Shown here: positions 1 to 21,490 of the stretch, piece after piece | Position numbering within the stretch: position 1 is the first letter of the stretch | Layout: every line of letters starts with the position of its first letter | Source: a virus | Lineage: Duplodnaviria; Heunggongvirae; Uroviricota; Caudoviricetes | DNA length: 21,924 bases | Virus record (IMG/VR): IMGVR_UViG_2609459845_000023 | Location: 1-21,924 of that record | Direction: 5' to 3' (one strand) | Notes under the pieces: model-generated | What the model was told of the DNA's origin: nothing | The model's input: the letters and a program-made list of their open reading frames with translations, nothing else | Database searches by the model: none | Position numbers and translations under genes: made by a program

Positions 1-1284
1 TTACTTCTTCGCCTCTGCAACCACTTTACTACCCACGCCGCGGTTATTGTATTCCCACATGCGGTTGTAGTTAGTGTCATTCAGATTGCGCTGTATTTCG
101 TCGTTATCATCTACGCTGCCGGTATTACCCGCAAACGGACGATTAGAGATCACCGCATCGGCCCACGGTTTAGCCGTGTTAAAACCTTCGTTGATGGCGC
201 TATCACGGATCACCACCTGACCGTTGGTATTGGCATCAACATCCAGCGAGCGGCCCAGTTGCGCCACACCATCACCGAAAGCATTGAAACGGCTGTTTAC
301 GGCGAGGAAACCGTAGTAAATGTTGGACAGCGTAGCCGGTGCAAACACATACGCTTCTTGCTGAGTACGTGAGTTCACCACGCGGAATTCGGTGTTATCG
401 AACACCACTGCGCCGCGACCAGAAACGATATCCACATCCCCTTCAATGTAGCTGTTGGTCACCAGCGTACGCGGCTGACGATTTGTTTCCAGACGGTTCT
501 GCACACCGCTGTTGGTGACAAAGAAGGTGTTCTGACGACCGAGAATGTTAACGTTGTTAATCTGTACCTGGTCACCATCAGTACGCAGTGCCACCGCCGG
601 ATGGTTACCTGCATCTACGCTATCGCCCAGCGTGTTTTCGATGGTCAGATTTTGCAGTTGCAGGCCATTGTTTTGTGACCAGAAGACCGCAGAGCAGAGA
701 ACACCGATACTGTCGCTGCGTTTGCTCTGGCAGCTATCGTACATATACCACGCTGGTTTACCTGGCATATATTTGCCGCGCGGGTTGACGTCGTGACGCC
801 AGTCGGCAGGGCTCATGCCACCATCAAGGGAAAGCCCAATCTTCACATCAATCGGTTTTTCACCTGTACCGTACAGAGTAATTCCACCCGGAGCGGCAGG
901 GACATATACCGTTCCCTGATACTCACCAGGCATCACGGCAATATACTGGCGCTTGTTGGTACGCTTGATAATTGCCGCATCTACCGCCGCCTGAATCGTG
1001 GTATGCGTTACACCTTGAGTGCCCGCCGGGCCGACAACAAAGTCAGGTTGCGCAGGCAGGGTAATCGGGGAAGGATTCCACGCTGCAGCACCTGGTGTCA
1101 GGGATGCAAAATAGTGTTGAGCATCGAAATTCTGCGCTTCTTTTGCCGACAGAATCGGGCGAGAAGAGGTACCAGGCGCGGTTTGATCAGAAGGACGTTG
1201 ATCGGGCGGGGTTGAGCTACAGGCGGTCAGCGTCACGCCAAAAGCCAATGCCAGCGCCAGACGGGAAACTGAAAATGTGTTCAC
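1..1284 (-). CDS. ybhC: host outer-membrane lipoprotein YbhC (pectinesterase-fold / acyl-CoA thioesterase family)
   Basis: 427-aa ORF from track; N-terminal lipoprotein signal MNTFSVSRLALALAFGVTLTAC (lipobox LTAC); recognised as E. coli YbhC, the gene flanking attB-lambda on the gal side; GC-normal composition. Confidence 0.85.
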   Translation of the reverse strand: MNTFSVSRLALALAFGVTLTACSSTPPDQRPSDQTAPGTSSRPILSAKEAQNFDAQHYFASLTPGAAAWNPSPITLPAQPDFVVGPAGTQGVTHTTIQAAVDAAIIKRTNKRQYIAVMPGEYQGTVYVPAAPGGITLYGTGEKPIDVKIGLSLDGGMSPADWRHDVNPRGKYMPGKPAWYMYDSCQSKRSDSIGVLCSAVFWSQNNGLQLQNLTIENTLGDSVDAGNHPAVALRTDGDQVQINNVNILGRQNTFFVTNSGVQNRLETNRQPRTLVTNSYIEGDVDIVSGRGAVVFDNTEFRVVNSRTQQEAYVFAPATLSNIYYGFLAVNSRFNAFGDGVAQLGRSLDVDANTNGQVVIRDSAINEGFNTAKPWADAVISNRPFAGNTGSVDDNDEIQRNLNDTNYNRMWEYNNRGVGSKVVAEAKK

Positions 1285-1330: not shown

Positions 1331-1345
1331 GCTTTTTTATACTAA
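1331..1345. other. attL: attL core (O) of lambda site-specific recombination; lambda P' arm follows to about 1418
   Basis: exact 15-bp lambda common core GCTTTTTTATACTAA; right flank GTTGGCATTATAAAAAAGCATTGCTTATCAATTTGTTGCAACGAACAGGTCACTATCAGTCAAAATAAAATCATTATTT matches the lambda attP P' arm; left flank ...GTTGAAGCCT is the bacterial B arm. Confidence 0.92.
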
Positions 1346-1418
1346 GTTGGCATTATAAAAAAGCATTGCTTATCAATTTGTTGCAACGAACAGGTCACTA
1401 TCAGTCAAAATAAAATCA

Positions 1419-2489
1419 TTATTTGATTTCAATTTTGTCCCACTCCCTGCCTCTGTCATCACGATACTGTGATGCCATGGTGTCCGACTTATGCCCGAGA
1501 AGATGTTGAGCAAATTTATCGCTTATCTGCTTCTCATAGAGTCTTGCAGACAAACTGCGCAACTCGTGAAAGGTTGGCGGATCCCCTTCGAAGGAGAGAC
1601 CTGATGCTTTTCGTGCGCGCATAAAATACCTTGATACTGTGCCGGATGAAAGCGGTTCACGACGAGTAGATGCAATTATGGTTTCTCCGCCAAGAATCTT
1701 TTTGCATTTATCAAGTGTTTCCTTCATTGATATCCCGAGAGCATCAACATGCAATGTTGTTGGGATGGCAATTTTTACGCCTGTTTTGCTTTGCTCGACA
1801 TAAAGATATCCATCTACGATATCAGACCACTTCATTTCGCATAAATCACCAACTCGCTGCCCGGTAACAACAGCCAGTTCCATTGCAAGTCTAAGCCAAC
1901 ATGGTGATGATTCTGCTGCTTGATAAATTTTCAGGTATTCGTCAGCCGTAAGTCTTGATCTCCTTACCTCTGATTTTGCAGCGCGAGTGGCTGCGACCGG
2001 GTTTGTTGTTATATGGCCTTCAGCCATAGCCTCTCGGAATGCATCGCTCAGTGTTGATCTGATTAACTTGGCTGATGCCGCCTTTCCCTCGTCTATGTAT
2101 CCATTGAGCATTGCCGCAATTTCTTTTGTGGTGATGTCTTCAAGTGGAGCATCAGGCAGACCCCTCCTTATTGCTTTAATTTTGCTCATGTAATTTATGA
2201 GTGTCTTCTGCTTGATTCCTCTGCTGGCCAGGATTTTTTCGTAGCGATCAAGCCATGAATGTAACGTAACGGAATTATCACTGTTGATTCTCGCTGTCAG
2301 AGGCTTGTGTTTGTGTCCTGAAAATAACTCAATGTTGGCCTGTATAGCTTCAGTGATTGCGATTCGCCTGTCTCGGCCTAATCCAAACTCTTTACCCGTC
2401 CTTGGGTCCCTGTAGCAGTAATATCCATTGTTTCTTATATAAAGGTTAGGGGGTAAATCCCGGCGCTCATGACTTCGCCTTCTTCCCAT
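1419..2489 (-). CDS. int: lambda integrase (tyrosine recombinase)
   Basis: 356-aa ORF; MGRRRSHERRDLPPNLYIRNNGYYCYRDPRTGKEFGLGRD... matches lambda Int essentially full length; 3' end 74 bp from att core as in lambda. Confidence 0.97.
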   Translation of the reverse strand: MGRRRSHERRDLPPNLYIRNNGYYCYRDPRTGKEFGLGRDRRIAITEAIQANIELFSGHKHKPLTARINSDNSVTLHSWLDRYEKILASRGIKQKTLINYMSKIKAIRRGLPDAPLEDITTKEIAAMLNGYIDEGKAASAKLIRSTLSDAFREAMAEGHITTNPVAATRAAKSEVRRSRLTADEYLKIYQAAESSPCWLRLAMELAVVTGQRVGDLCEMKWSDIVDGYLYVEQSKTGVKIAIPTTLHVDALGISMKETLDKCKKILGGETIIASTRREPLSSGTVSRYFMRARKASGLSFEGDPPTFHELRSLSARLYEKQISDKFAQHLLGHKSDTMASQYRDDRGREWDKIEIK

Positions 2490-2685
2490 TTCTGATCCTC
2501 TTCAAAAGGCTACCTGTTACTGGTCGATTTAAGTCAACCTTTACCGCTGATTCGTGGAACAGATATTCTCTTCCATCCTTAACCGGAGGAGGGAATATCC
2601 TGCATTCGCGCACCCATCGACGAACTGTTTCAAGGCTTCTTGGGCGTCGCTGGCGAGCGTTCCACTCCTGAAGTGTCAAGTACAT
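2467..2685 (-). CDS. xis: lambda excisionase
   Basis: 72-aa ORF MYLTLQEWNARQRRPRSLETVRRWVRECRIFPPPVKDGREYLFHESAVKVDLNRP..., recognised as lambda Xis; overlaps int start as in lambda. Confidence 0.95.
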   Translation of the reverse strand: MYLTLQEWNARQRRPRSLETVRRWVRECRIFPPPVKDGREYLFHESAVKVDLNRPVTGSLLKRIRNGKKAKS

Positions 2686-2710
2686 CGCAAAGTCTCCGCA
2701 ATTACACGCA

Positions 2711-2733
2711 AGAAAAAACCGCCATCAGGCGGC
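2711..2733 (-). terminator. putative intrinsic terminator (hairpin CCGCC-TGAT-GGCGG + U6) between orf55 and xis
   Basis: minus-strand read GCCGCCTGATGGCGGTTTTTTCT; overlaps the stop codon of the 55-aa ORF. Confidence 0.45.
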
Positions 2734-2892
2734 TTGGTGTTCTTTCAGTTCTTCAATTCGAATATTGGTTATGTCTGCATGTGCTATCTGCGCCCATATC
2801 ATCCAGTGGTCATAGCAGTCATTGATGTTCTCTGCTTCGATAACTCTGTTGAATGGTTCTCCATTCCATTCACCTGTGACTCGGAAGTGCAT
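2725..2892 (-). CDS. hypothetical small protein (55 aa), xis-proximal
   Basis: hand-translated ORF MHFRVTGEWNGEPFNRVIEAENINDCYDHWMIWAQIAHADITNIRIEELKEHQAA; below the 60-aa track cutoff; followed by a terminator-like hairpin; no recognisable family. Confidence 0.4.
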   Translation of the reverse strand: MHFRVTGEWNGEPFNRVIEAENINDCYDHWMIWAQIAHADITNIRIEELKEHQAA

Positions 2893-2902
2893 TTATCATC
2901 TC

Positions 2903-2930
2903 CATAAAACAAAACTCGCCGTAGCGAGTT
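2903..2930 (-). terminator. putative intrinsic terminator downstream of the 142-aa gene
   Basis: minus-strand hairpin AACTCGC-TACG-GCGAGTT followed by TTTGTTTTAT. Confidence 0.45.
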
Positions 2931-2974
2931 CAGATATAATTTCCACCAAAGGCAGTAGTTGCTGATGCTAAGAA

Positions 2975-3403
2975 TTATTCAATATCTATTCCTGTAATAT
3001 CTTTTATCTTTTTCCTTGCAAAGCCTTTTGCTAGTGATTTTGAAACACTTATTAGTGTACTAATTCCCTCATCCTTAAAGTTTGTTTTTATAGTTTGCCA
3101 GACCTCCTTTTGACGCAAGTCAGCAATAAAATCATGCCCTCTTGCTGTCAACCTCAGTGGTACTTCGATCCAACTATATCCAACACCTTCCCCTAACTCG
3201 TTGGACATTATATGACCGAACCCAGGTTTTCCATCAACCCTGACTATTAATTCGTAGTCGCATAATAATCGCATATGGAAAATAAAATTTTGGTCATATC
3301 TATTAAAGCCATTATCCTCTAGTTCACTAAGCATCGTGTCAGGGCCATGAGTTTTTTCGAATGCGATAAGTAGATCTTTTAGATATTGCTGGTCTAATTT
3401 CAT
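2975..3403 (-). CDS. hypothetical protein (142 aa), AT-rich accessory gene
   Basis: track ORF; strong SD GGAGG 7 nt upstream of ATG; AT-rich by eye relative to the lambda core genes; no family recognised. Confidence 0.7.
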   Translation of the reverse strand: MKLDQQYLKDLLIAFEKTHGPDTMLSELEDNGFNRYDQNFIFHMRLLCDYELIVRVDGKPGFGHIMSNELGEGVGYSWIEVPLRLTARGHDFIADLRQKEVWQTIKTNFKDEGISTLISVSKSLAKGFARKKIKDITGIDIE

Positions 3404-3431
3404 TGCCGCCTCCGTGACATGTCACAGAGAT

Positions 3432-3770
3432 TTATATCATTAATTTTGTTTCGTGCCAGCCTTTGGTCACCCAGCATTGTGAGTCACCATTACACGGGCA
3501 TGAATTAACAGGAACTCTCTCGCCGCACTTACCGCAACGTTTTCTGCTGATCGATTTTATACGCCAGCGCACACGTGCATCATCCTGGCGGCTCAGTAAC
3601 GCGATGTACTCACCAAACTCGTAAGGCGCATGCCTGAAGCGGCGCGTGGCTCAGTTACGATCCAGCATTTCAATTTCCTGAGCATCAAGTACAAGCTCCA
3701 GCTTACGCATACCGGATGATGCTTGCTTGGCTCTCTGATCGACTTTGCGCTCTGCTGATGATTTAGCCAT
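3432..3770 (-). pseudogene. Cys-rich (zinc-ribbon-like) small protein gene interrupted by an in-frame TGA at 3651..3653
   Basis: ATG at 3770 with SD AGGAAAAG; 39 codons (MAKSSAERKVDQRAKQASSGMRKLELVLDAQEIEMLDRN), then TGA, then 72 further in-frame sense codons (ATRRFRHAPYEFGEYIALLSRQDDARVRWRIKSISRKRCGKCGERVPVNSCPCNGDSQCWVTKGWHETKLMI) with no internal restart ATG. Confidence 0.5.
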
Positions 3771-3963
3771 TCTGCTTTTCCTGCATTAGGAGAAAGACAA
3801 TCATGGCGGCGCGGATACTTCCGGTATCTTTTTACTCGATATTACCCTTCAATGGCACATACAAGAAGAGAGCCATCAACAGGAGTGAGTGAGGAATCGA
3901 CAACCAGCAACGCTTAATTATCTATAGTGTCGTATTTGCTTCATAAAATATGGCGAATAACAC

Positions 3964-3995
3964 AAAGCCCGCAGCAGCTCATTGTGCGGGCTTTT
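3964..3995. terminator. hairpin (AGCCCGCA / TGCGGGCT) with T-rich flanks, candidate terminator downstream of the 204-aa gene
   Basis: 8-bp perfect stem about 70 nt beyond the stop of the 4064..4678 gene; loop is long (11 nt), so weak. Confidence 0.3.
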
Positions 3996-4063
3996 CTTAT
4001 ACATACTTCCTAGAGATAATTCTATGGAGGCATTAAATTAATACTGTCATTGGTAATATCATA

Positions 4064-4678
4064 TTATCTAAAAGTCTTTCCACTTTTAACGTCTAGGTAT
4101 ATTCTGTTCGACAACGTCATTCCTCCGCAATATGTGAAATAGATGTTTTTCCCCTTATTGCTTGATGCCATCCACCCTCCGATTTCCTTAAAGTCGCTTT
4201 CCGTGCAGACCCCTTCGTTTATTAACTTCCTAGCTGCCGAAGAAAACTCTTTTTTGTATATACGGTAGTCATCAGATCCTTTGATTAAAGTATCATCTCC
4301 GCTCGCATTTTCAGCAGGATCTGATGGCCTTTCACTGCTAAGATCACTAAGTTTAACCCATTCTGAAAACTTGCCATTGACGATTCCGTTTTTTCTTGTG
4401 CAGGATTTATTACCTTCTTTAATATATTCGCTTTCCCCTCCCACACATGAGGCTGAATATGGCTCAGTTATACGAACCCATTCACCTTTTTTTTCTAGAA
4501 AATCTACGCCTTCCCTGAAAAATAGTTTCCCAGCCACTCCACATTTACTTGAAGGGCAGGTATGTCTTTCCGTTCGATCAACAACAACCCAAAGTCTTGA
4601 TTCATTTTTTGCCATTGCCGATGGTATTTGAGATGAGACAATTAACGTAAGCCCTAAAATTAGTATTGATTTTTTCAT
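4064..4678 (-). CDS. secreted/periplasmic Cys-containing hypothetical protein (204 aa)
   Basis: track ORF; N-terminal signal peptide MKKSILILGLTLIVSSQIPSAMA; SD AAGGA 8 nt upstream; AT-rich. Confidence 0.75.
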   Translation of the reverse strand: MKKSILILGLTLIVSSQIPSAMAKNESRLWVVVDRTERHTCPSSKCGVAGKLFFREGVDFLEKKGEWVRITEPYSASCVGGESEYIKEGNKSCTRKNGIVNGKFSEWVKLSDLSSERPSDPAENASGDDTLIKGSDDYRIYKKEFSSAARKLINEGVCTESDFKEIGGWMASSNKGKNIYFTYCGGMTLSNRIYLDVKSGKTFR

Positions 4679-4814
4679 TGTAATTTCCTTTTACTTTTTA
4701 CAAAGCGTTTAATCATGGCTGATTATCTTTAAGCGTAGTAACAGCCTTGTGCGAAACATGTTACCAAATCGCCATTTCAGTGTATCCGCAGTTAGGCTGC
4801 CACTTCAAGGATTC

Positions 4815-5228
4815 CTAATTACATGGTACGTAAGCGTAAAATCCCGTTGGTTGTCGGGTAATAACTCTGATCAAATCTCCCTTGTCTTTTGCTCTTACGT
4901 ATGCAGCTCTTGTGTATTCAACCCAGGCCTCCAGTTCAGCAATACGCTTACTTCCATCCGAGATAACACCTTCTACTCACGCTGCTCGTTGAGTTTTGAT
5001 TTTTGCTGTCTCCAGCTCAACACGCAGTTTCCTCACCGTTAGCGCAATATCCTCGTTCTCCTGGTCGCGGCGTTTGATGTACTGCTGGTTTCTTTCCCGT
5101 TCATCCAGCAGTGTCAGCACAATCGATGGTGTTACCAGCTCATGGAAAAGGTCCGCGTCAAATCCCCAGTTGTCATGCATTGCCTGCTCTGCCGCTTCAC
5201 GCAGTGCCTGAGAGTGAATTACGCTCAC
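4815..5228 (-). pseudogene. hypothetical coiled-coil protein gene with in-frame TGA at 4977..4979 (83 codons + TGA + 53 codons)
   Basis: track ORF 4977..5228 (MSVIHSQALREAAEQ...AKIKTQRAA) continues in the same frame past TGA as VEGVISDGSKRIAELEAWVEYTRAAYVRAKDKGDLIRVITRQPTGFYAYVPCN to a TAG at 4815..4817. Confidence 0.5.
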
Positions 5229-5446
5229 TTCGAACCTCTCTGTTTACTGATAAGTTCCAGATCCTCCTGGCAACTTGCACAAGTCCGACAACCCTGAACG
5301 GCCAGGCGTCTTCGTTCATCTATCGGATCGCCACACTCACAACAATGAGTGGCAGATATAGCCTGGTGGTTCAGGCGGCGCATTTTTATTGCTGTGTTGC
5401 GCTGTAATTCTTCAATTTCTGATGCTGAATCAATGATGTCTGCCAT
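5225..5446 (-). CDS. TraR/DksA-family C4 zinc-finger protein (73 aa)
   Basis: track ORF with CxxC...CxxC spacing (CCECGDPIDERRRLAVQGCRTCASC) typical of phage TraR/DksA-type zinc fingers; stop overlaps the start of the downstream ORF. Confidence 0.7.
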   Translation of the reverse strand: MADIIDSASEIEELQRNTAIKMRRLNHQAISATHCCECGDPIDERRRLAVQGCRTCASCQEDLELISKQRGSK

Positions 5447-5495
5447 CTTTCATTAATCCCTGAATTGTTGGTTAATACGCTTGAGGGTGAATGCG

Positions 5496-5522
5496 AATAA
5501 TAAAAAAGGAGCCTGTAGCTCC
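5496..5522 (-). terminator. intrinsic terminator (GGAGC-TACAG-GCTCC + U-run)
   Basis: minus-strand read GGAGCTACAGGCTCCTTTTTTATTATT immediately downstream of the 5545..5760 ORF. Confidence 0.55.
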
Positions 5523-5544
5523 ATGATGATTTTGTTTTTCATGC

Positions 5545-5760
5545 TCACCGTTCCTTAAAGACGCCGTTTAACATGCCGATCGCCAGGCTTAAATGAGTCG
5601 GTGTGAATCCCATCAGCGTTACCGTTTCGCGGTGCTTCTTCAGTACGCTACGGCAAATGTCATCGACGTTTTTATCCGGAAACTGCTGTCTGGCTTTTTT
5701 GATTTCAGAATTAGCCTGACGGGCAATACTGCGAAGGGCGTTTTCTTGCTGAGGTGTCAT
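5545..5760 (-). CDS. hypothetical protein (71 aa from MTPQQENALRS; alternative upstream start at 5826 gives 93 aa)
   Basis: track ORF 5545..5826; the internal ATG at 5760 forms an ATGA overlap with the stop of a coupled 27-codon ORF; start uncertain. Confidence 0.5.
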   Translation of the reverse strand: MTPQQENALRSIARQANSEIKKARQQFPDKNVDDICRSVLKKHRETVTLMGFTPTHLSLAIGMLNGVFKER

Positions 5761-5840
5761 TGAACAAGTCCCATGTCGGCAAGCATAAGCACACAGAATA
5801 TGAAGCCCGCTGCCAGAAAAATGCATTCAGTGGTTGTCAT
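5757..5840 (-). CDS. putative 27-aa hydrophobic micro-protein (MTTTECIFLAAGFIFCVLMLADMGLVQ)
   Basis: hand-translated; ATGA overlaps at both ends (with the orf63-like stop and with the MTPQQ start); single hydrophobic stretch; alternative reading is the N-terminal extension of the 93-aa ORF. Confidence 0.25.
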   Translation of the reverse strand: MTTTECIFLAAGFIFCVLMLADMGLVQ

Positions 5841-6028
5841 ACCTGGTCTCTCTCATCTGCTTCTGCTTTCGCCACCATCATTTCCAGCTTTTGTGAAAGG
5901 GATGCGGTTAACGTATGAAATTCTTCGTCTGTTTCTACCGGTATTGGCACAAACCTGACTCCAATTTGAGCGAGGCTATGTGCCATCTCAATGCTCGTTC
6001 TTAACTCAACAGGAGATGCTTTGTGCAT
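5837..6028 (-). CDS. small early-left protein, lambda orf63-like (63 aa)
   Basis: track ORF; SD GGGGAG 6 nt upstream; size and position (between exo and xis) match lambda orf63; sequence identity to lambda not confirmed from memory. Confidence 0.5.
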   Translation of the reverse strand: MHKASPVELRTSIEMAHSLAQIGVRFVPIPVETDEEFHTLTASLSQKLEMMVAKAEADERDQV

Positions 6029-6183
6029 ACAGCTCCCCGTTTATTATTTATCTCCTCAGCCAGCCGCTGTGCTTTCAGGGGATTTCGGGTAACAGAAAGG
6101 CCGGGAAATACCCAGCCTCGCTTTGTAACGGAGTAGACGAAAGTGATCGCGCCTACCCGGATATTATCGTGAGGATGCGTCAT
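6001..6183 (-). CDS. small early-left protein, lambda orf60a-like (60 aa from second Met)
   Basis: track ORF 6001..6189; ATG at 6183 overlaps the exo stop (ATGA), giving 60 aa as in lambda orf60a. Confidence 0.45.
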
Positions 6184-6860
6184 CGCCATTGCTCCCCAAA
6201 TACAAAACCAATTTCAGCCAGTGCCTCGTCCATTTTTTCGATGAACTCCGGCACCATCTCGTCAAAACTCGCCATGTAATTTTCATCCCGCTCAACCACG
6301 ACATAATGCAGGCCTTCACGCTTCATTCGTGGGTCATAGTTGGCAAAGTACCAGGCATCTTTTCGCGTCACCCACATGCTGTACTGCACCTGGGCCATGT
6401 AAGCCGACTTTATGGCCTCGAAACCACCGAGCCGGAACTTCATGAAATCCCGGGAGGTAAACGGGCATTTCAGCTCAAGGCCGTTGCCGTCACTGCATAA
6501 ACCATCGGGAGAGCAGGCGGTGCGCATACTTTCGTCGCGATAGATGATCGGGGATTCAGTAACATTCACGCCGGAAGTAAACTCAAACAGGGCTCTGGCG
6601 TCATTCTCGTACTTTTTTCCCCAGGCCAGCGCCTTAGCGTTAACTTCCGGAGCCACACCGGTACAAATCTCAGCCAGCAGGGTGTGAAAGTAGGACATTT
6701 TCATGTCAGGCCACTTTTTACCGGAGCGGGGTTTTGCTATCACATTGTGAACTTCTGAAGCCGTGATGACGCCGAGTCGTAATTTGTTCCACGCATCATC
6801 TCCCTGTTCGACAGCTCTCACGTCGATCCCGGTACGCTGCAGGATAATGTCCGGTGTCAT
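6180..6860 (-). CDS. exo: lambda exonuclease (Red-alpha)
   Basis: 226-aa [67 protein letters not shown]..., recognised as lambda Exo. Confidence 0.97.
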
Positions 6861-7642
6861 GCAGCCACCTTCTGCTCAGAGGCTTTCTGTTTCAGGAATC
6901 CAAGAGCTTTCACTGCTTCGGCCTGTGTCAGTTCTGACGATGCGCGAATGTCGCGGCGAAATATCTGGGAACAGAGCGGCAATAAGTCGTCATCCCATGT
7001 TTTATCCAGGGCAATCAGCAGAGTGTTAATCTCCTGCATGGTTTCATCGTTAACCGGAGTGATGTCGCGTTCCGGCTGACGTTCTGCAGTGTATGCGGTA
7101 TTTTCGACAATGCGCTCGGCTTCATCCTTGTCATAGATACCAGCAAATCCGAAGGCCAGACGGGCACACTGAATCATGGCTTTATGACGCAACATCCGTT
7201 TGGGATGCGACTGCCACGGCCCCGTGATTTCTCTGCCTTCGCGGGTTTTGAATGGTTCGCGGCGGCATTCATCCATCCACTCGGTAACGCAGATCGGATG
7301 ATTACGGTCCTTGCGGTAAATCCGGCATGTGCAGGATTCATTGTCCTGCTCAAAGTCCATGCCATCAAACTGCTGGTTTTCATTGATGATACGGGACCAG
7401 CCATCAACGCCCACCACCGGAACGATGCCGTTCTGCTTATCAGGGAAGGCGTAAATTTCTTTCGTCCACGGATTAAGGCCGTACTGGTTGGCGACGATCA
7501 ACAATGCGATGAACTGCGCATCGCTGGCATCACCTTTAAATGCCGTCTGGCGAAGAGTGGTGATCAGTTCCTGTGGGTCGACAGAATCCATGCCGACACG
7601 TTCAGCCAGCTTCCCTGCCAGCGTTGCGAGTGCTGTACTCAT
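6857..7642 (-). CDS. bet: lambda Bet single-strand annealing protein (Red-beta)
   Basis: 261-aa [69 protein letters not shown]..., recognised as lambda Bet. Confidence 0.97.
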
Positions 7643-7647
7643 CCGTT

Positions 7648-8064
7648 TTATACCTCTGAATCAATATCAACCTGATGGTGAGCAATGGTTTCAACCATGT
7701 ACCGGATGTGTTCTGCCATGCGCTCCTGAAACTCAACATCGTCATCAAACGCACGGGTAATGGCTTTTTTGCTGGCCCCGTGGCGTTGCAAATGATCGAT
7801 GCATAGCGATTCAAACAGGTGCTGGGGCAGGCCTTTTTCCATGTCGTCTGCCAGTTCTGCCTCTTTCTCTTCACGGGCGATCTGCTGGTAGTGACGCGCC
7901 CAGCTCTGAGCCTCAAGACGATCCTGAATGTAATAAGCGTTCATGGCTGAACTCCTGAAATAGCTGTGAAAATATCGTCCGCGAAATGCCGGGCTGATTA
8001 GGAAAACAGGGAAGGGGGGTAGTGAATGCTTTTGCTTGATCTCAGTTTCAGTATTAATATCCAT
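7648..8064 (-). CDS. gam: lambda Gam (RecBCD inhibitor)
   Basis: 138-aa [77 protein letters not shown]..., recognised as lambda Gam. Confidence 0.95.
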
Positions 8065-8162
8065 TTTTTATAAGCGTCGACGGCCTCACGAAACATCTTT
8101 TCATCGCCAATAAAAGTGGCGATAGTGAATTTAGTCTGGATAGCCATAAGTGTTTGATCCAT
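7998..8162 (-). CDS. kil: host-killing / cell-division inhibitor Kil
   Basis: internal start of track ORF 7998..8288 at [39 protein letters not shown]...; start overlaps the cIII 3' end by 32 nt as in lambda; exact C-terminus and length versus lambda uncertain. Confidence 0.8.
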
Positions 8163-8295
8163 TTTTTGGGACTCCTGGCTGATTAAGTATGTCGATAAGG
8201 CGTTTCCATCCGTCACGTAATTTACGGGTGATTCGTTCAAGTAAAGATTCGGAAGGGCAGCCAGCAACAGGCCACCCTGCAATGGCATATTGCAT
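8131..8295 (-). CDS. cIII: lambda CIII (FtsH inhibitor, stabilises CII)
   Basis: hand-translated 54-aa [57 protein letters not shown]; SD TAAGGAG upstream; below the track length cutoff. Confidence 0.9.
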   Translation of the reverse strand: MQYAIAGWPVAGCPSESLLERITRKLRDGWKRLIDILNQPGVPKNGSNTYGYPD

Positions 8296-8367
8296 GGTGT
8301 GCTCCTTATTTATACATAACGAAAAACGCCTCGAGTGAAGCGTTATTGGTATGCGGTAACGCCGCGC

Positions 8368-8736
8368 TCAGGCGGCTTTGATAGTCATATCATCTGGATC
8401 AAATATTCCTGATGTATCGATATCGGTAATTCTTATTCCTTCGCTACCATCCATTGGAGGCCATCCTTCCTGACCATTTCCATCATTCCAGTCGAACTCA
8501 CACACAACACCATATGCATTTAAGTCGCTTGAAATTGCTATAAGCAGAGCATGTTGCGCCAGCATGATTAATACAGCATTTAATACAGAGCCGTGTTTAT
8601 TGAGTCGGTATTCAGAGTCTGACCAGAAATTATTAATCTGGTGAAGTTTTTCCTCTGTCATTACGTCATGGTCGATTTCAATTTCTATTGATGCTTTCCA
8701 GTCGTAATCAATGATGTATTTTTTGATGTTTGACAT
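8368..8736 (-). CDS. ea10: lambda Ea10 (early single-strand-binding-like protein)
   Basis: 122-aa ORF MSNIKKYIIDYDWKASIEIEIDHDVMTEEKLHQINNFWSDSEYRLNKHGS...; same length and same 73-nt spacing from cIII as in lambda. Confidence 0.85.
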   Translation of the reverse strand: MSNIKKYIIDYDWKASIEIEIDHDVMTEEKLHQINNFWSDSEYRLNKHGSVLNAVLIMLAQHALLIAISSDLNAYGVVCEFDWNDGNGQEGWPPMDGSEGIRITDIDTSGIFDPDDMTIKAA

Positions 8737-8754
8737 CTGTTCATATCCTCACAG

Positions 8755-8782
8755 ATAAAAAATCGCCCTCACACTGGAGGGC
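8755..8782 (-). terminator. intrinsic terminator (tL2-region) upstream of ea10
   Basis: minus-strand hairpin GCCCTC-CAGTGT-GAGGGC followed by GATTTTTTAT. Confidence 0.45.
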
Positions 8783-8844
8783 AAAGAAGATTTCCAATAA
8801 TCAGAACAAGTCGACTCCTGTTTAGTTACGAGCGACATTGCTCC

Positions 8845-8872
8845 GTGTATTCACTCGTTGGAATGAATACAC
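8845..8872. repeat. 9-bp inverted repeat GTGTATTCA / TGAATACAC with 10-nt spacer
   Basis: read directly; lies between two terminator hairpins in the gap between the ral-slot gene and ea10. Confidence 0.5.
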
Positions 8873-8905
8873 AGTGCAGTGTTTATTCTGTTGTTTGCGT
8901 GAAAA

Positions 8906-8927
8906 TGAAACCCGCCTGAGCGGGTTA
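8906..8927 (-). terminator. intrinsic terminator overlapping the stop of the ral-slot gene
   Basis: minus-strand hairpin AACCCGC-TCAG-GCGGGTT followed by TCATTTTC. Confidence 0.5.
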
Positions 8928-9653
8928 TGACCACTTTTTGTTTGGATTTCGTTGGTGAGCGTGGTTTACAGGATTATTTGATATACCCCATAACTCTGAC
9001 TCGCTTATCTCTACACGAGAGAAAGACCTGCTTTCTTTCAGTTCTTTTATAAACCTAGAACCTACGATGACATCTATTGTCCCAGAAAGTTCTTGTAAAA
9101 GATCTTTGTTTTTTCTGAGGAAGAAAACATCTTCTTTATATTTAATTTTTACATAGAATTTATTCTGTATTTTTAATATATCAAAGCATGGCAGATATCT
9201 ATATCCCTCATGCTTTCGCCACTGCTTAACAATTATAACATCTCTTTCATTTACTGCATTAATCAGCCCAAGACCAAGTATAGGTATGAATATTCTATTG
9301 TCTGCCGAAAGCGTACAATTATTACCACCAGGCAAATATGTATAAATCATGTCGGAATTTTTATTCGCATCAACGAATGCACGTAAGAATCGTACATATT
9401 TTTGCCATCCGTTTATACCAAATTTACCATATAAGTATTCTTTATTTGTTAGAAGAAAACTATTTGTATCAGGAGCCTTATCTACAGACCTGTCGATAAG
9501 ATCTCCAACTACGTTTACAAAGTCAAAGACAGAGTTTAATAAGAACAATTGTCTTTCAGTCGGGCGAATTTCAATTATGTAGCCTGGATGAAGACGATAT
9601 TGCATCTGCTTACGAAGTATGCTGAACGCTTGGGTCCGGGCATCTGAAAGCAA
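8925..9653 (-). CDS. hypothetical AT-rich protein occupying the lambda ral/sieB slot (242 aa from TTG at 9653; 226 aa from first ATG at 9605)
   Basis: track ORF; body 8930..9540 is strongly AT-rich by eye while the 5' ~100 nt is GC-normal; no family recognised; does not match lambda Ral. Confidence 0.65.
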   Translation of the reverse strand: MLSDARTQAFSILRKQMQYRLHPGYIIEIRPTERQLFLLNSVFDFVNVVGDLIDRSVDKAPDTNSFLLTNKEYLYGKFGINGWQKYVRFLRAFVDANKNSDMIYTYLPGGNNCTLSADNRIFIPILGLGLINAVNERDVIIVKQWRKHEGYRYLPCFDILKIQNKFYVKIKYKEDVFFLRKNKDLLQELSGTIDVIVGSRFIKELKESRSFSRVEISESELWGISNNPVNHAHQRNPNKKWS

Positions 9654-9803
9654 CTTCCTGTCGCCATCGCCGTGAGCATTGTTTCTAATAAAACTGATAT
9701 AATTTGCTAATTTTTCAGCCTCTTTTTTGTGTTTTTTTTCGCTCTGATGCTGAGTCTATTGGTTTTGGTATGGACTTGTAATCAATTTTCTTCATTACGT
9801 ACC

Positions 9804-10127
9804 TCATGCCAATGGAATGGATTTCCCTTTAACCTTTTGTCTTCCTTGACAAGTTATACCGAACTCACTTGGCTTGCTATACCAAACTCGAAGATTCTTG
9901 CGCTCAATACGTTGCAGGTTGCTTTCAATCTGTTCGTGGTATTCAGCCAGCACCGTAAGGTCTATCGGATTCAGTGCGCTTTCTACTCGTGATTTCGGTT
10001 TGCGATTCAGCGAGAGAATAGGGCGGTTAACTGGTTTTGCGCTTACCCCAACCAACAGGGGATTTGCTGCTTTCCATTGAGCCTGTTTCTCTGCGCGACG
10101 TTCGCGGCGGCGTGTTTGTGCATCCAT
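9804..10127 (-). CDS. N: lambda N transcription antiterminator
   Basis: internal start of track ORF at MDAQTRRRERRAEKQAQWKAANPLLVGVSAKPVNRPILSLNRKPKSRVESALNPIDLTVLAEYH... (107 aa), recognised as lambda N. Confidence 0.95.
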   Translation of the reverse strand: MDAQTRRRERRAEKQAQWKAANPLLVGVSAKPVNRPILSLNRKPKSRVESALNPIDLTVLAEYHEQIESNLQRIERKNLRVWYSKPSEFGITCQGRQKVKGKSIPLA

Positions 10128-10285
10128 CTGGATTCTCTTGTCAGTTAGCTTTGGTGGTGTGTGTGAGTCGTAGTCCTGAACGAAAACACCCCACGATTGG
10201 CTCATTTGCAGCTAATCCGGATTCGCACTTCCGGCCAATGCTTCGTTTCGTATCACACACCCCAAAGCCTTCTGCTTTGAATGCT

Positions 10286-10317
10286 GCCCTTCTTCAGGGC
10301 TTAATTTTTAAGAGCAT
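10286..10317 (-). promoter_or_regulatory. nutL: nutL (boxB GCCCTGAAGAAGGGC; boxA-like TGCTCTTAA)
   Basis: minus-strand read GATGCTCTTAAAAATTAAGCCCTGAAGAAGGGCAGCA; boxB identical to lambda nutL, boxA differs at its first base from my recollection of lambda (CGCTCTTA). Confidence 0.85.
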
Positions 10318-10354
10318 CACCTTCAATGGTGGTCAGTGCGTCCTGCTGATGGTT

Positions 10355-10430
10355 TAAAATTACAAAAAAGATTGTATGTTGTAAACAAGAAATATTGTAA
10401 GAAAGGGGCATGAAAAACAAACTCCATTGT
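10355..10430 (-). promoter_or_regulatory. 434-type OL operators (three ACAA-N6-TTGT sites) with pL
   Basis: ACAAAAAAGATTGT (10362..10375), ACAAGAAATATTGT (10385..10398), ACAAACTCCATTGT (10417..10430); leftward promoter-like hexamers TTGTTT...TGTAAT overlap them. Confidence 0.75.
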
Positions 10431-10480
10431 TTTTAAACGGAAAATAGTTTGTTTTTTGGTTATCGAGATTGAGGTGGGGA

Positions 10481-11836
<1,356 letters not shown>

Positions 11837-11844
11837 GACATTCC

Positions 11845-11876
11845 CGCTCTTACACATCCCAGCCCTGAAAAAGGGC
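11845..11876 (+). promoter_or_regulatory. nutR: nutR (boxA CGCTCTTAC, boxB GCCCTGAAAAAGGGC)
   Basis: read directly: CGCTCTTACACATCCCAGCCCTGAAAAAGGGC, matching lambda nutR. Confidence 0.9.
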
Positions 11877-11894
11877 ATCAAATTAAACCACACC

Positions 11895-11930
11895 TATGGT
11901 GTATGCATTTATTTGCATACATTCAATCAA
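11895..11930 (+). terminator. tR1 region (hairpin GTATGCA-TTTATT-TGCATAC)
   Basis: sequence ATGGTGTATGCATTTATTTGCATACATTCAATCAATTG recognised as the lambda tR1 region between nutR and cII. Confidence 0.6.
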
Positions 11931-11955
11931 TTGTTATCTAAGGAAATACTTACAT

Positions 11956-12249
11956 ATGGTTCGTGCAAACAAACGCAACGAGGCTCTACGAATCGAGAGT
12001 GCGTTGCTTAACAAAATCGCAATGCTTGGAACTGAGAAGACAGCGGAAGCTGTGGGCGTTGATAAGTCGCAGATCAGCAGGTGGAAGAGGGACTGGATTC
12101 CAAAGTTCTCAATGCTGCTTGCTGTTCTTGAATGGGGGGTCGTTGACGACGACATGGCTCGATTGGCGCGACAAGTTGCTGCGATTCTCACCAATAAAAA
12201 ACGCCCGGCGGCAACCGAGCGTTCTGAACAAATCCAGATGGAGTTCTGA
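11956..12249 (+). CDS. cII: lambda CII transcriptional activator
   Basis: internal start of track ORF at MVRANKRNEALRIESALLNKIAMLGTEKTAEAVGVDKSQISRWKRDWIPKFSMLLAVLEWGVVDDDMARLARQVAAILTNKKRPAATERSEQIQMEF (97 aa). Confidence 0.95.
   Translation: MVRANKRNEALRIESALLNKIAMLGTEKTAEAVGVDKSQISRWKRDWIPKFSMLLAVLEWGVVDDDMARLARQVAAILTNKKRPAATERSEQIQMEF
11965..11978 (-). promoter_or_regulatory. CII-binding repeat TTGC-N6-TTGC of pRE
   Basis: minus-strand read TTGCGTTTGTTTGC inside the 5' end of cII, as in lambda pRE. Confidence 0.7.
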
Positions 12250-12271
12250 GGTCATTACTGGATCTATCAAC
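12195..12271 (-). ncRNA. oop: oop antisense RNA (77 nt) with its intrinsic terminator
   Basis: minus-strand read GTTGATAGATCCAGTAATGACCTCAGAACTCCATCTGGATTTGTTCAGAACGCTCGGTTGCCGCCGGGCGTTTTTTATT matches lambda oop; antisense to the cII 3' end. Confidence 0.8.
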
Positions 12272-12281
12272 AGGAGTCATT

Positions 12282-13181
12282 ATGACAAATACAGCAAAAA
12301 TACTCAACTTCGGCAGAGGTAACTTTGCCGGACAGGAGCGTAATGTGGCAGATCTCGATGATGGTTACGCCAGACTATCAAATATGCTGCTTGAGGCTTA
12401 TTCGGGCGCAGATCTGACCAAGCGACAGTTTAAAGTGCTGCTTGCCATTCTGCGTAAAACCTATGGGTGGAATAAACCAATGGACAGAATCACCGATTCT
12501 CAACTTAGCGAGATTACAAAGTTACCCGTCAAACGGTGCAATGAAGCCAAGTTAGAACTCGTCAGAATGAATATTATCAAGCAGCAAGGCGGCATGTTTG
12601 GACCAAATAAAAACATCTCAGAATGGTGCATCCCTCAAAACGAGGGAAAATCCCCTAAAACGAGGGATAAAACATCCCTCAAATTGGGGGATTGCTATCC
12701 CTCAAAACAGGGGGACACAAAAGACACTATTACAAAAGAAAAAAGAAAAGATTATTCGTCAGAGAATTCTGGCGAATCCTCTGACCAGCCAGAAAACGAC
12801 CTTTCTGTGGTGAAACCGGATGCTGCAATTCAGAGCGGCAGCAAGTGGGGGACAGCAGAAGACCTGACCGCCGCAGAGTGGATGTTTGACATGGTGAAGA
12901 CTATCGCACCATCAGCCAGAAAACCGAATTTTGCTGGGTGGGCTAACGATATCCGCCTGATGCGTGAACGTGACGGACGTAACCACCGTGACATGTGCGT
13001 GCTGTTCCGCTGGGCATGCCAGGACAACTTCTGGTCCGGTAACGTGCTGAGCCCGGCCAAACTCCGCGATAAGTGGACCCAACTCGAAATCAACCGTAAC
13101 AAGCAACAGGCAGGCATGACAGCCAGCAAACCAAAACTCGACCTGACAAACACAGACTGGATTTACGGGGTGGATCTATGA
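12282..13181 (+). CDS. O: lambda O replication initiator
   Basis: 299-aa ORF MTNTAKILNFGRGNFAGQERNVADLDDGYARLSNMLLEAYSGADLTKRQFKVLLAILRKTYGWNKPMDRITDSQLSEITKLPVKRCNEAKLELVRMNIIKQQGGMF... Confidence 0.97.
   Translation: MTNTAKILNFGRGNFAGQERNVADLDDGYARLSNMLLEAYSGADLTKRQFKVLLAILRKTYGWNKPMDRITDSQLSEITKLPVKRCNEAKLELVRMNIIKQQGGMFGPNKNISEWCIPQNEGKSPKTRDKTSLKLGDCYPSKQGDTKDTITKEKRKDYSSENSGESSDQPENDLSVVKPDAAIQSGSKWGTAEDLTAAEWMFDMVKTIAPSARKPNFAGWANDIRLMRERDGRNHRDMCVLFRWACQDNFWSGNVLSPAKLRDKWTQLEINRNKQQAGMTASKPKLDLTNTDWIYGVDL
12629..12760 (+). repeat. ori: ori-lambda: four iterons (ATCCCTCAAAACGAGGGA-like) plus adjacent AT-rich region
   Basis: TCCCTCAAAACGAGGGA / TCCCCTAAAACGAGGGA / TCCCTCAAATTGGGGGA / TCCCTCAAAACAGGGGGA followed by ACAAAAGACACTATTACAAAAGAAAAAAGAAAAGATTATT, inside O. 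Confidence 0.9.
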
Positions 13182-13879
13182 AAAACATCGCCGCACAGAT
13201 GGTTAACTTTGACCGTGAGCAGATGCGTCGGATCGCCAACAACATGCCGGAACAGTACGACGAAAAGCCGCAGGTACAGCAGGTAGCGCAGATCATCAAC
13301 GGTGTGTTCAGCCAGTTACTGGCAACTTTCCCGGCGAGCCTGGCTAACCGTGACCAGAACGAAGTGAACGAAATCCGTCGCCAGTGGGTTCTGGCTTTTC
13401 GGGAAAACGGGATCACCACGATGGAACAGGTTAACGCAGGAATGCGCGTAGCCCGTCGGCAGAATCGACCATTTCTGCCATCACCCGGGCAGTTTGTTGC
13501 ATGGTGCCGGGAAGAAGCATCCGTTACCGCCGGACTGCCAAACGTCAGCGAGCTGGTTGATATGGTTTACGAGTATTGCCGGAAGCGAGGCCTGTATCCG
13601 GATGCGGAGTCTTATCCGTGGAAATCAAACGCGCACTACTGGCTGGTTACCAACCTGTATCAGAACATGCGGGCCAATGCGCTTACTGATGCGGAATTAC
13701 GCCGTAAGGCCGCAGATGAGCTTGTCCATATGACTGCGAGAATTAACCGTGGTGAGGCGATCCCTGAACCAGTAAAACAACTTCCTGTCATGGGCGGTAG
13801 ACCTCTAAATCGTGCACAGGCTCTGGCGAAGATCGCAGAAATCAAAGCTAAGTTCGGACTGAAAGGAGCAAGTGTATGA
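13178..13879 (+). CDS. P: lambda P (DnaB helicase loader)
   Basis: 233-aa ORF MKNIAAQMVNFDREQMRRIANNMPEQYDEKPQVQQVAQIINGVFSQLLATFPASLANRDQNEVNEIRRQWVLAF... Confidence 0.97.
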   Translation: MKNIAAQMVNFDREQMRRIANNMPEQYDEKPQVQQVAQIINGVFSQLLATFPASLANRDQNEVNEIRRQWVLAFRENGITTMEQVNAGMRVARRQNRPFLPSPGQFVAWCREEASVTAGLPNVSELVDMVYEYCRKRGLYPDAESYPWKSNAHYWLVTNLYQNMRANALTDAELRRKAADELVHMTARINRGEAIPEPVKQLPVMGGRPLNRAQALAKIAEIKAKFGLKGASV

Positions 13880-14166: not shown

Positions 14167-14190
14167 CCATCTACATCACTGAGCTAATAA

Positions 14191-14223
14191 CAGGCCTGCT
14201 GGTAATCGCAGGCCTTTTTATTT
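14191..14223 (+). terminator. tR2 intrinsic terminator between ren and ninB
   Basis: hairpin AGGCCTGC-TGGTAATC-GCAGGCCT followed by TTTTTATTT. Confidence 0.8.
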
Positions 14224-14239
14224 GGGGGAGAGGGAAGTC

Positions 14240-15354: not shown

Positions 15355-15380
15355 CTAAGATATCGTGCGAGGAAATGACA

Positions 15381-21480: not shown

Positions 21481-21490
21481 CATGCATTGG

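Follow-up and report, generated by a model that had tools for sequence, protein, structure and literature searches.

The segment that adjoins int and xis in this lambda-type prophage, located at the ybhC attachment site, is a patchwork of imported phage accessory genes of an ordinary and widely shared kind. It is best explained as the variable end of a lambda-type exo-xis region that has been rebuilt from at least three imported modules, with genes that would be expressed mainly by read-through from pL and with the gene for a 204 amino acid exported protein as the sole plausible moron. We give this explanation a probability of about 70%. The window analysed is a stretch of 21,924 nucleotides (IMG/VR record IMGVR_UViG_2609459845_000023), in which the following features are considered.

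2716-2735, minus strand: hairpin with U-tract, just past the orf55 stop codon
2725-2892, minus strand: orf55 (55 amino acids), homologue of lambda orf55
2912-2931, minus strand: hairpin with U-tract, between the DUF2513 gene and orf55
2941-4929, no strand assigned: mosaic patch of 1,989 bp, GC content 41.0%
2975-3403, minus strand: DUF2513 gene (142 amino acids)
3410-3429, no strand assigned: palindrome CTCTGTGACATGTCACGGAG, with the core GTGACATGTCAC at 3414-3425
3432-3770, minus strand: PHROG 536 pseudogene (112 amino acid protein)
3808-3913, minus strand: remnant of a P1-type humD gene (umuD-like, S24 peptidase)
3964-3994, no strand assigned: 10-bp GC-rich hairpin downstream of the 204 amino acid gene
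4064-4678, minus strand: gene for the 204 amino acid protein
4679-4820, minus strand: 142-nt upstream region, co-mobile with the 204 amino acid gene
4817-5228, minus strand: ea22-like gene, frameshifted

Comparison with lambda (blastn against J02459) shows that window positions 1331-2940 correspond to lambda 27724-29333 and positions 4930-8400 to lambda 30094-33568. Because these flanks are collinear with lambda, the segment 2941-4929 stands in for lambda 29334-30093, which holds ea8.5 and the 3' part of ea22. The homology stops at 2940, just upstream of the hairpin at 2912-2931, and resumes at 4930. The position agrees exactly with the one named in the original prediction, which had placed accessory genes with functionally uncharacterised products where lambda has ea8.5 and ea22, the dispensable exo-xis ('ea') position of lambdoid prophages. 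The four minus-strand ORFs that it listed, at 2725-2892 (55 amino acids), 2975-3403 (142 amino acids), 3432-3770 and 4064-4678 (204 amino acids), are also present.

The exo-xis region of lambda (orf55, ea8.5, ea22, orf73, orf61, orf63 and orf60a) has the same position between xis and exo and the same leftward orientation downstream of pL. Its genes are dispensable and are read from pL, and great diversity has been described for ea22 (PMC7093339). The window has orf55, the N-terminal part of ea22, the homologue of orf73 (TraR/DksA), exo, bet and gam in common with lambda, all 97% identical, but differs in that ea8.5 and the 3' part of ea22 are missing, three unrelated genes and debris are found instead, and ea22 is frameshifted. 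The ea22-like gene (Pfam Ead_Ea22, E 9e-20), frameshifted according to both the PGAP annotation and a reading of the sequence, has 83 lambda-like N-terminal codons (4977-5228) and an alternative C-terminal segment (about 4817-4976) in another frame.

The four ORFs had been regarded as an island of independent genes, and this could not be upheld: the PHROG 536 and DUF2513 genes belong together as one two-gene module, and orf55 with both its flanking hairpins is ordinary lambda sequence. The orf55 gene (PHROG 676, E 1.7e-39, function unknown) lies outside the imported patch, within DNA about 97% identical to lambda, and has a dN/dS of 0.11 when compared with Chlobot, an isolated, plaque-forming phage. 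The terminator scan found one hairpin just past its stop codon (-14.6 kcal/mol, z -2.9), identical in lambda, and one between the DUF2513 gene and orf55 (-12.1 kcal/mol, z -4.05), which lambda has with one G-U change. Since these hairpins (2735-2716 and 2931-2912) are found almost base for base in lambda, they are not a property of the imported genes. A literature search for an established lambda name for the two (possibly tL3) gave nothing usable.

The claim that each ORF has its own terminator stands for three of the four, whereas nothing terminator-like was found between the Cys-rich ORF and the 142 amino acid ORF. The combination of a GC-rich hairpin and a U-run expected of an intrinsic terminator is seen at 2735-2716 and 2931-2912, in part at 3994-3964, and not in the palindrome at 3410-3429. 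The hairpin at 3964-3994 (-18.8 kcal/mol on the minus strand, -17.5 kcal/mol on the plus strand, z about -2.7) is a candidate bidirectional terminator whose T-run is better on the plus strand than on the minus strand, where it is weak. Counted over both strands there are six terminator-like sites, compared with 2.3 +/- 1.6 in shuffled sequences, which is a modest excess.

The description of the segment as AT-rich applies unevenly: in relation to the whole window (46.4% GC), the values are 36.1% for the 142 amino acid gene and 39.2% for the 204 amino acid gene, and 49.6% for the Cys-rich ORF and 44.6% for orf55. The GC content of the patch is the 33rd lowest among 399 windows of equal size, and the stretch at about 8400-9800 is lower still. 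Contrary to the statement that no product matches a family that can be named, all four match PHROG families (676, 585, 536 and 8310, E 1e-34 to 1e-136), and the 142 amino acid protein is recognised by the DUF2513 model (PF10711) over residues 2-115 with 42.9 bits against a gathering cut-off of 29.6. NCBIfam searches of the products gave no hits, and single-sequence searches of PDB with the 204 amino acid, DUF2513 and PHROG 536 proteins gave nothing useful.

The description of the 204 amino acid product as secreted and Cys-containing agrees with its sequence: it begins with MKK, continues with a hydrophobic core and has AMA directly before K, which together have the form of a Sec signal peptide, and it has six Cys residues conserved in its family. 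The signal peptide is followed by an SH3b-type domain with a Cys-rich insert, recognisable by fold or sequence profile, and by a C-terminal domain of about 75-90 amino acids. No solved structure or Pfam family matches this last domain, which is also found alone in small lipoproteins. Unlike the SH3b domains of endolysins, lysostaphin and NlpC/P60 hydrolases, the protein has no catalytic domain and carries a disulfide-rich insert; the partner of its SH3b domain is the uncharacterised C-terminal domain. The gene has a dN/dS of about 0.1 in comparison with Chlobot, indicating strong purifying selection. Homologues are found beside integrases or in accessory positions of prophages in Pseudomonas and Aeromonas.

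This gene moves as a unit with its 142-nt upstream region: the boundaries are shared between copies, and window positions 4062-4820 are 84.9% identical to a P1-like plasmid of E. fergusonii. The upstream region contains a weak promoter-like pair, TTGAAG (4808-4803) and TACACT (4784-4779) separated by 18 nt, which agrees with the consensus at 8 of 12 positions and falls below the pass level of the promoter scan. The two hexamers are invariant and the spacer is variable in a comparison of three sequences only. The hairpin that follows the gene is strong, but the U-tract on the sense strand is weak.

Morons, such as bor and lom of lambda and the morons of HK97, are an established concept. The 204 amino acid gene resembles such morons in being present or absent between related phages at one position, in its lower GC content (39%, with 51.5% in exo-bet-gam), in having its own upstream region and downstream hairpin, and in its predicted envelope product. 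It is absent from lambda at this position and present in Chlobot and many prophages, and only one of 50,697 phage records carries it. The moron-like organisation proposed for the whole segment can be retained for this gene only, because orf55, DUF2513 and PHROG 536 lack a promoter and terminator of their own. Judging from its sequence context, it is the only gene here for which independent expression as a moron is plausible.

Between this gene and the PHROG 536/DUF2513 pair lies a remnant of humD, with 82-90% DNA identity to humD of P1, P7, D6 and PhiR41_1, where PGAP marks a fragment of a 'DNA repair protein'. This remnant is recombination debris.

The ORF at 3432-3770 belongs to PHROG 536 (E 7.8e-48), the family of epsilon15 gp49 and phiV10 p55. 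These two proteins and TL-2011b gp20 are 84-86% identical to the window protein, have the same length of 112 amino acids and have the same palindrome after the stop codon of the gene. The window copy differs from them in being broken by a nonsense codon and in its location, which is within a lambda-type early left operon rather than at the last position ahead of terS. The in-frame TGA reported for this Cys-rich ORF was found at 3651-3653. Alignments with Chlobot, phiV10 and TL-2011b, which all have TGT, show that it arose by a TGT to TGA change at Cys40, a residue that is invariant in all 18 sequences compared. PGAP flags the gene with 'internal stop'. Compared with Chlobot its dN/dS is 0.97, based on 9 substitutions, which are too few to tell relaxed selection from noise.

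Selenoproteins are classically recognised by a TGA that aligns with a conserved Cys, and the replacement of an invariant residue could suggest that the codon is recoded, as selenocysteine or by read-through. This is scarcely credible here. The 60 nt of RNA after the UGA fold no better than shuffled sequences (z +0.84) and thus provide no SECIS-like structure, and the TGA is a single-base change confined to one sub-lineage, found in 34 genomes compared with 315 that have the intact-type TGT allele (intact protein WP_001129736). Furthermore, the copies with TGA reside in decaying prophages and nonsynonymous changes are clustered around the site. Recoding was rejected on account of the missing fold and the minority status of the allele; a nonsense mutation has made this ORF a pseudogene. 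The database label 'transcriptional regulator' for PHROG 536 is unsupported by any Pfam, NCBIfam or PDB match, and a profile search against PDB gave nothing useful. The idea of a ribbon-helix-helix protein was discarded because hhalign against Arc gave a probability of 0.1% and there was no Pfam or PDB hit.

The DUF2513 protein has a winged-helix fold followed by C-terminal helices, and to judge by this fold it probably binds nucleic acid. Its identity to winged-helix DNA-binding proteins of the MarR, PadR and TubR types is only 8-19%, with no family match at the sequence level, and its C-terminal helices differ from theirs. The dN/dS compared with Chlobot is 0.68 from 11 substitutions, again too few to distinguish relaxed selection from noise. 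The literature search turned up no paper on the function of DUF2513, PF10711 or the RefSeq accessions. DUF2513 also moves on its own, without a partner gene: it is found at three different places in the early operons of phages, and within integron cassettes of chromosomes; in Vibrio proteolyticus it is an integron gene cassette with attC-like repeats on both sides. Together with PHROG 536, at a distance of 28 nt and with no terminator between, it constitutes a conserved two-gene module. The order PHROG 536, 28 nt, DUF2513 and terS is seen in prophages of Cronobacter whose packaging genes are epsilon15-like, and the pair is also found in Enterobacter and Yersinia loci.

The 28-nt spacer contains the palindrome at 3410-3429 (-10.8 kcal/mol as RNA), which overlaps the ribosome-binding site of DUF2513. 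Its core comes directly behind the stop codon of PHROG 536 genes in E. coli, Cronobacter, Enterobacter, Yersinia, Salmonella and TL-2011b, and in Citrobacter behind what is left of such a gene; where a DUF2513 gene has no PHROG 536, the core is absent upstream of it. The palindrome accompanies PHROG 536 in every context examined and is a conserved element associated with the 3' ends of these genes. An operator for DUF2513 was rejected as its primary reading because the palindrome is found after PHROG 536 also without DUF2513 (in TL-2011b and Salmonella) and is missing before DUF2513 genes without PHROG 536. Nor is it a terminator, as there is no U-tract and the hairpin is extended in the window, elsewhere only a stem of 4-5 bp being conserved. 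It is not the genome end of phiV10 either: the record has merely been cut open behind its final stop codon, and a terminator distinct from the palindrome comes next. By eye, its spacing and half-sites do not fit the consensus of a LexA or CRP site.

The block that makes up the patch is widespread. Among 5,426 complete E. coli genomes, at least 131 have 80% or more of its length, and Chlobot has it with 97.7% identity over the full length. Copies in complete E. coli genomes number roughly 450 altogether. The block also occurs beside torS, there with another integrase, and plasmids of E. coli, Klebsiella, Enterobacter and Citrobacter carry it as well. Sister copies have insertions of IS1 and IS4 and large deletions, and the DUF2513 and 204 amino acid families are kept at full length across genera. 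A common conserved block with annotated functions would have spoken against the original prediction, and this is half the case: the block is common and conserved, and its annotations still read 'hypothetical' or DUF. For the right half of the window, no complete genome accounts for more than 69% of it.

At least three imported modules would have been joined to make the patch, through recombination that was illegitimate or used short homologies. One would be the self-contained 204 amino acid cassette (4062-4820), with its own 142-nt upstream region and a strong hairpin after it. Its product would be exported by Sec to the periplasm, where its SH3b domain would most likely attach to the cell wall or to some other glycan of the envelope; with such binding, the protein would be an envelope factor of lysogenic-conversion or exclusion type. 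The debris at about 3808-3913 would represent a second module, a fragment of P1-type humD. The third would consist of the 112 amino acid PHROG 536 protein with its six Cys residues, the spacer with GTGACATGTCAC and the DUF2513 winged-helix protein, and in the lineage of the window its first gene is dead through the change at Cys40.

All the genes run in the same direction as transcription from pL, and the window includes an N gene and a gene for a cI-like repressor. With this orientation and an N gene, read-through as for the ea genes of lambda is the default expectation, and the genes would be transcribed mainly as part of an N-antiterminated delayed-early transcript after infection or induction. 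Promoters of their own did not emerge, as no sigma-70-like site on the coding (minus) strand passed promoter prediction. No terminase or head genes were found after the lysozyme gene within the window. The prophage may consequently be defective, and expression driven by pL may never happen in this host.

Three other explanations have to be weighed against this reconstruction. A set of four morons that act as independent units, each under a promoter and closed by a terminator of its own and expressed from the repressed prophage for the benefit of the host, would account for the three hairpins between or after ORFs, the lower GC content of two genes and the movement of the 204 amino acid gene with its upstream region. 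This arrangement is improbable, since orf55 and two of the hairpins are lambda's own sequence, PHROG 536 and DUF2513 form a tightly spaced conserved pair with no terminator between, the coding strand has no promoter-like site that passes the scan, one of the genes is a pseudogene, and every gene points in the direction of pL. At the other extreme, the segment could be recombination scar tissue in a cryptic prophage in which no ORF still matters. The nonsense mutation, the humD debris, the frameshifted ea22, the insertions and deletions in sister copies and the dN/dS values of PHROG 536 (near 1) and DUF2513 fit such decay. It is nevertheless very hard to reconcile with the low dN/dS (about 0.1) of the 204 amino acid gene and orf55, with the full-length preservation of the DUF2513 and 204 amino acid families across genera, and with the intact block in an isolated, plaque-forming phage.

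Many genes in accessory hot spots of prophages act in defence or counter-defence, and several superinfection-exclusion proteins are exported or are lipoproteins (Cor, Llp and T4 Sp). DUF2513, PHROG 536 or the exported protein might accordingly shield the lysogen or disarm host immunity. No match at E <= 0.1 was obtained when five proteins were compared with PADLOC-DB 2.0, no enzymatic or effector domain was found and no paper ties DUF2513 to a function. A defence or counter-defence locus is thus unlikely, in spite of the variable accessory position, the occurrence of DUF2513 as an integron cassette in Vibrio proteolyticus, the predicted envelope location of the 204 amino acid protein, comparable to Cor, Llp and T4 Sp, and the mobility of both genes among phages, plasmids and islands. 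The rebuilt exo-xis end, expressed mainly from pL, remains the preferred explanation.

As matters stand, nothing here would surprise a phage specialist. The region is a clean, well-bounded case of how the exo-xis region of lambda is rebuilt by module swaps at hairpin and gene boundaries. It is also of value for annotation: a supposedly recoded ORF becomes a pseudogene, PHROG 536 and DUF2513 are recognised as partners that recur together along with a conserved palindrome, and two 'hypothetical' proteins common in prophages of Enterobacterales receive assignments at the level of fold, one as a winged-helix protein and the other as a predicted exported protein with an SH3b domain. It is a speculative thought, with the odds well against it, that the two products offer first handles on undescribed mobile functions. 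DUF2513 could then be a portable regulator or phage-competition factor, with GTGACATGTCAC as a control site when it is paired with PHROG 536, and the proteins with SH3b and the C-terminal domain could be a new class of envelope factors of prophages, plasmids and islands, acting for example in superinfection exclusion or cell-wall protection. If either protein acts in conflicts between phages or between phage and host, the many natural presence and absence variants would make this easy to test.

Blastn comparison with lambda (J02459) matches lambda 27724-29333 to window positions 1331-2940 (97.9% identity) and lambda 30094-33568 to 4930-8400 (96.9% identity), and therefore 1,989 bp (2941-4929) substitute for 760 bp of lambda consisting of ea8.5 and the 3' part of ea22. 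This locus belongs to the exo-xis region, known for transcription from pL and for a highly diverse ea22 (PMC7093339). The prophage is of lambda type and is located at the lambda attachment site. The four ORFs of the original prediction are all present on the minus strand and are listed here with their surroundings.

Features of the patch and of the surrounding prophage (window positions)
1-1284, minus strand: ybhC, at the start of the window
1419-2489: int, nearly identical to lambda int
2467-2685: xis, nearly identical to lambda xis
2725-2892, minus strand: orf55
2975-3403, minus strand: DUF2513 gene (142 aa)
3432-3770, minus strand: Cys-rich ORF, PHROG 536
4064-4678, minus strand: gene for the 204-aa protein
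4067-4336: C-terminal domain of the 204-aa protein (approximately 75-90 aa; residues 115-204)
5225-5446: 73-aa ORF (TraR/DksA family), homologue of lambda Orf73
8250-8308, minus strand: lambda cIII RNA thermometer (Rfam RF01804, 88.5 bits, full length)
17199-17720: KilA-N protein
18964-20037, leftward: acyltransferase_3
20060-21346: GH43/GH32-like ORF, weak match
From 21526: S24 peptidase ORF

Orf73 is said to reprogram host transcription, according to the title of a published paper (PMC9239242). The genes exo, bet, gam, kil and cIII are found to the right of the patch, and the window also holds a DUF2528 (Ea10-like) gene, N, a cI-like repressor gene and a lysozyme gene. The positions of O, P and ren, at approximately 12282-14166, are assigned only by the size and order of the ORFs. 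AT content in the window peaks at 8400-9800 (33-39% GC), a stretch that may be another accessory insertion; a leftward ORF of 242 aa at 8925-9653, between the Ea10-like gene and N, has no Pfam match. No terminase or head genes were found past the lysozyme gene (15947-21924), where the KilA-N, acyltransferase_3, GH43/GH32-like and S24 peptidase ORFs lie instead, and the prophage may be truncated or carry cargo of the serotype-conversion type. For positions 8000-21924, matches in complete E. coli genomes cover 69% at most.

The patch is a mosaic of mobile modules. Its GC content is 41.0%, compared with 46.4% for the whole window, but the predicted AT-richness is uneven: it holds for the DUF2513 gene (36.1%) and the 204-aa gene (39.2%) but not for the Cys-rich ORF (49.6%), and orf55 has 44.6%. 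A terminator had also been proposed for each ORF. Hairpins are indeed present at 2735-2716, 2931-2912 and 3994-3964, but these are only three for four ORFs, and the junction between the Cys-rich and 142-aa ORFs has only a palindrome without a U-tract. The first two hairpins are inside lambda-homologous DNA and lambda has both almost base-for-base, with the homology ending just upstream of hairpin 2931-2912. The orf55 gene is lambda orf55 (PHROG 676, E 1.7e-39), is under purifying selection (dN/dS 0.11 against Chlobot, an isolated phage with an intact version of the block) and is outside the imported patch. The ea22-like gene (4817-5228) is frameshifted: its 83 lambda-like N-terminal codons give way, with a change of frame, to a different C-terminal segment; sister copies are flagged as frameshifted by PGAP.

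The Cys-rich ORF is a pseudogene. The in-frame TGA was confirmed at 3651-3653, and translated through this codon the ORF encodes a complete PHROG 536 protein of 112 aa (E 7.8e-48); the family includes phiV10 p55, TL-2011b gp20 and epsilon15 gp49. The codon is TGT (Cys) in Chlobot, phiV10 and TL-2011b, and this Cys and five others are invariant across 18 diverse members. Among 5,426 complete E. coli genomes, the TGA-bearing 31-mer was found in 34 and the same 31-mer with TGT in none, while the Chlobot-type TGT 31-mer is present in 315. RefSeq labels the TGA copies pseudogenes with an internal stop, and their host prophages also have IS insertions and large deletions. No SECIS-like fold was found in the RNA after the UGA (z +0.84), and comparison with Chlobot gives seven nonsynonymous and two synonymous changes (dN/dS 0.97). 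The TGA is a simple nonsense mutation of one sub-lineage. The family label "transcriptional regulator" finds no support in Pfam, NCBIfam or PDB searches or in a comparison with Arc; the 46-aa CDS with this name in Chlobot covers only the C-terminal portion of the 112-aa ORF, which is intact there.

Debris lies upstream of the PHROG 536 gene: approximately 3808-3913 shares 82-90% identity with part of the interior of humD (the umuD homologue carried by P1, P7 and D6-type phage-plasmids), and PGAP names this piece a "DNA repair protein" fragment. The TL-2011b homology sets in before the PHROG 536 start codon, at 3828. The 105-aa "UmuD-like protein" CDS of Chlobot (4405-4722) is apparently a misannotation: its start is in the humD remnant, and it then crosses the PHROG 536 gene in the wrong reading frame.

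The original prediction could name no family for the 142-aa protein, but it passes Pfam DUF2513 and has 113 homologue clusters across Enterobacterales. PHROG 536 and DUF2513 form a conserved pair with a palindrome. Cronobacter prophages with epsilon15-like packaging genes have PHROG 536, 28 nt, DUF2513 and then terS, with the same order and spacing as in the window, and the same junction is found in Enterobacter mori and Yersinia frederiksenii. The lambdoid prophages of Citrobacter have DUF2513 in the nin region, after what is left of a PHROG 536 3' end. Distant DUF2513 genes are single-gene integron cassettes, and DUF2513 is therefore a portable stand-alone gene. In Vibrio proteolyticus (L038, 1954-2650) it is flanked by two copies of an attC/VCR-type repeat of approximately 130 nt, in a cassette array with repeat spacings of 461-1538 bp, and a ...GCGTTA(T/G) core is directly upstream of the gene in several other marine loci. 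A cassette context was also noted at comparison loci L034, L040, L047, L058 and L024.

The spacer in the window contains the 12-bp palindrome GTGACATGTCAC (3414-3425), also seen at comparison loci L003 (2487) and L091-L095 (3837) and in L014-L020. Its core is kept while the flanks vary, and in every context examined it is at or just past the PHROG 536 stop codon, whether followed by DUF2513, by a terminator plus terS or by nin-region genes. It is present in TL-2011b and in Salmonella nin-region prophages, both without DUF2513, and missing upstream of DUF2513 genes without PHROG 536. The 10-mer of the palindrome occurs 27 times in the 825 kb examined, where approximately 0.8 would be expected by chance, though the loci are related, and all but four occurrences adjoin the 3' end of a PHROG 536 gene. 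The palindrome tracks PHROG 536 and not DUF2513, and is therefore an element linked to the former; a protein-binding site and a recombination boundary are two possible roles for it. In the window it extends to a 9-bp hairpin over the GGAG of the DUF2513 ribosome-binding site, an extension not conserved at other loci.

The 204-aa protein had been described as secreted, and it does have a Sec-type signal peptide, replaced by a lipobox in several relatives, so export signals are found in the family. The AlphaFold model (pLDDT 90.2) has two domains. The C-terminal alpha/beta domain, with the motif SDDY...C..DF.E.GGW.KS...YFTYCGG..NR.YLD, matches nothing in Pfam or among the solved structures of the PDB. 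It was found in 422 clusters (E <= 1e-3), in C-terminal position in all, either alone in exported proteins or lipoproteins of approximately 100 aa or preceded by SH3b and further N-terminal extensions, for example ankyrin repeats, and it is a widespread extracytoplasmic module. Homologues of the 204-aa protein in Pseudomonas and Aeromonas are of equal length with 62-69% identity, and adjoin genomic-island integrases or sit in prophage accessory positions. Purifying selection on the gene is strong, as dN/dS is 0.10 in the Chlobot comparison and 0.085 in that with E. fergusonii. Positions 4062-4820, the gene with 142 nt upstream and ending at the stop codon, are a unit in common with a P1-like plasmid of E. 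fergusonii. In the upstream stretch, a TTGAAG-18 nt-TACACT pair has invariant hexamers and a variable spacer across the three sequences compared, but matches only 8 of 12 consensus positions. Chlobot is the only one of 50,697 phage records to encode the protein, which is also found on plasmids of E. coli, Klebsiella, Enterobacter, Citrobacter, Vibrio and Pseudomonas. Of the four genes proposed to have a moron-like organisation, this is the one with moron-like attributes.

The whole block is 97.7% identical in Chlobot; at least 20 E. coli chromosomes have it at 100% identity, and at least 80% of it is present in at least 131 of the 5,426 complete genomes. In lambdoid prophages next to torS, with a different integrase, it runs orf73, ea22', 204-aa gene, PHROG 536, DUF2513, orf55, and large plasmids of Klebsiella, Enterobacter, Citrobacter and E. 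coli carry the same block within a fragment of prophage. Sister copies are broken by IS1 or IS4 or lie within heavily deleted prophages; ATCC 8739 has IS1 between ea22 and the 204-aa gene, and in strain A14 recT is fused to ren. A common block with annotated functions would have spoken against the original prediction: the block is common, but its products are annotated as hypothetical or DUF only.

No promoter passed the scan on the coding strand of the patch. Because of this, the co-orientation with pL and the presence of N, expression of the patch is most likely within the N-antiterminated delayed-early transcript, as for the genes replaced. The lysogen may in addition express the 204-aa gene independently, in which case the protein would work in the periplasm by binding the cell wall via SH3b. 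The patch contributes two folds, a winged helix (DUF2513) and SH3b; the DUF2513 protein probably binds nucleic acid, and its PHROG 536 partner would be dead in this lineage. None of the proteins matched a known defence model. The feature is real but ordinary: phage accessory modules of known kinds, newly combined in a variable region that is itself well known. Its value is as an annotation record, with the DUF2513, PHROG 536 and SH3b families as leads, while the system itself is unsurprising.
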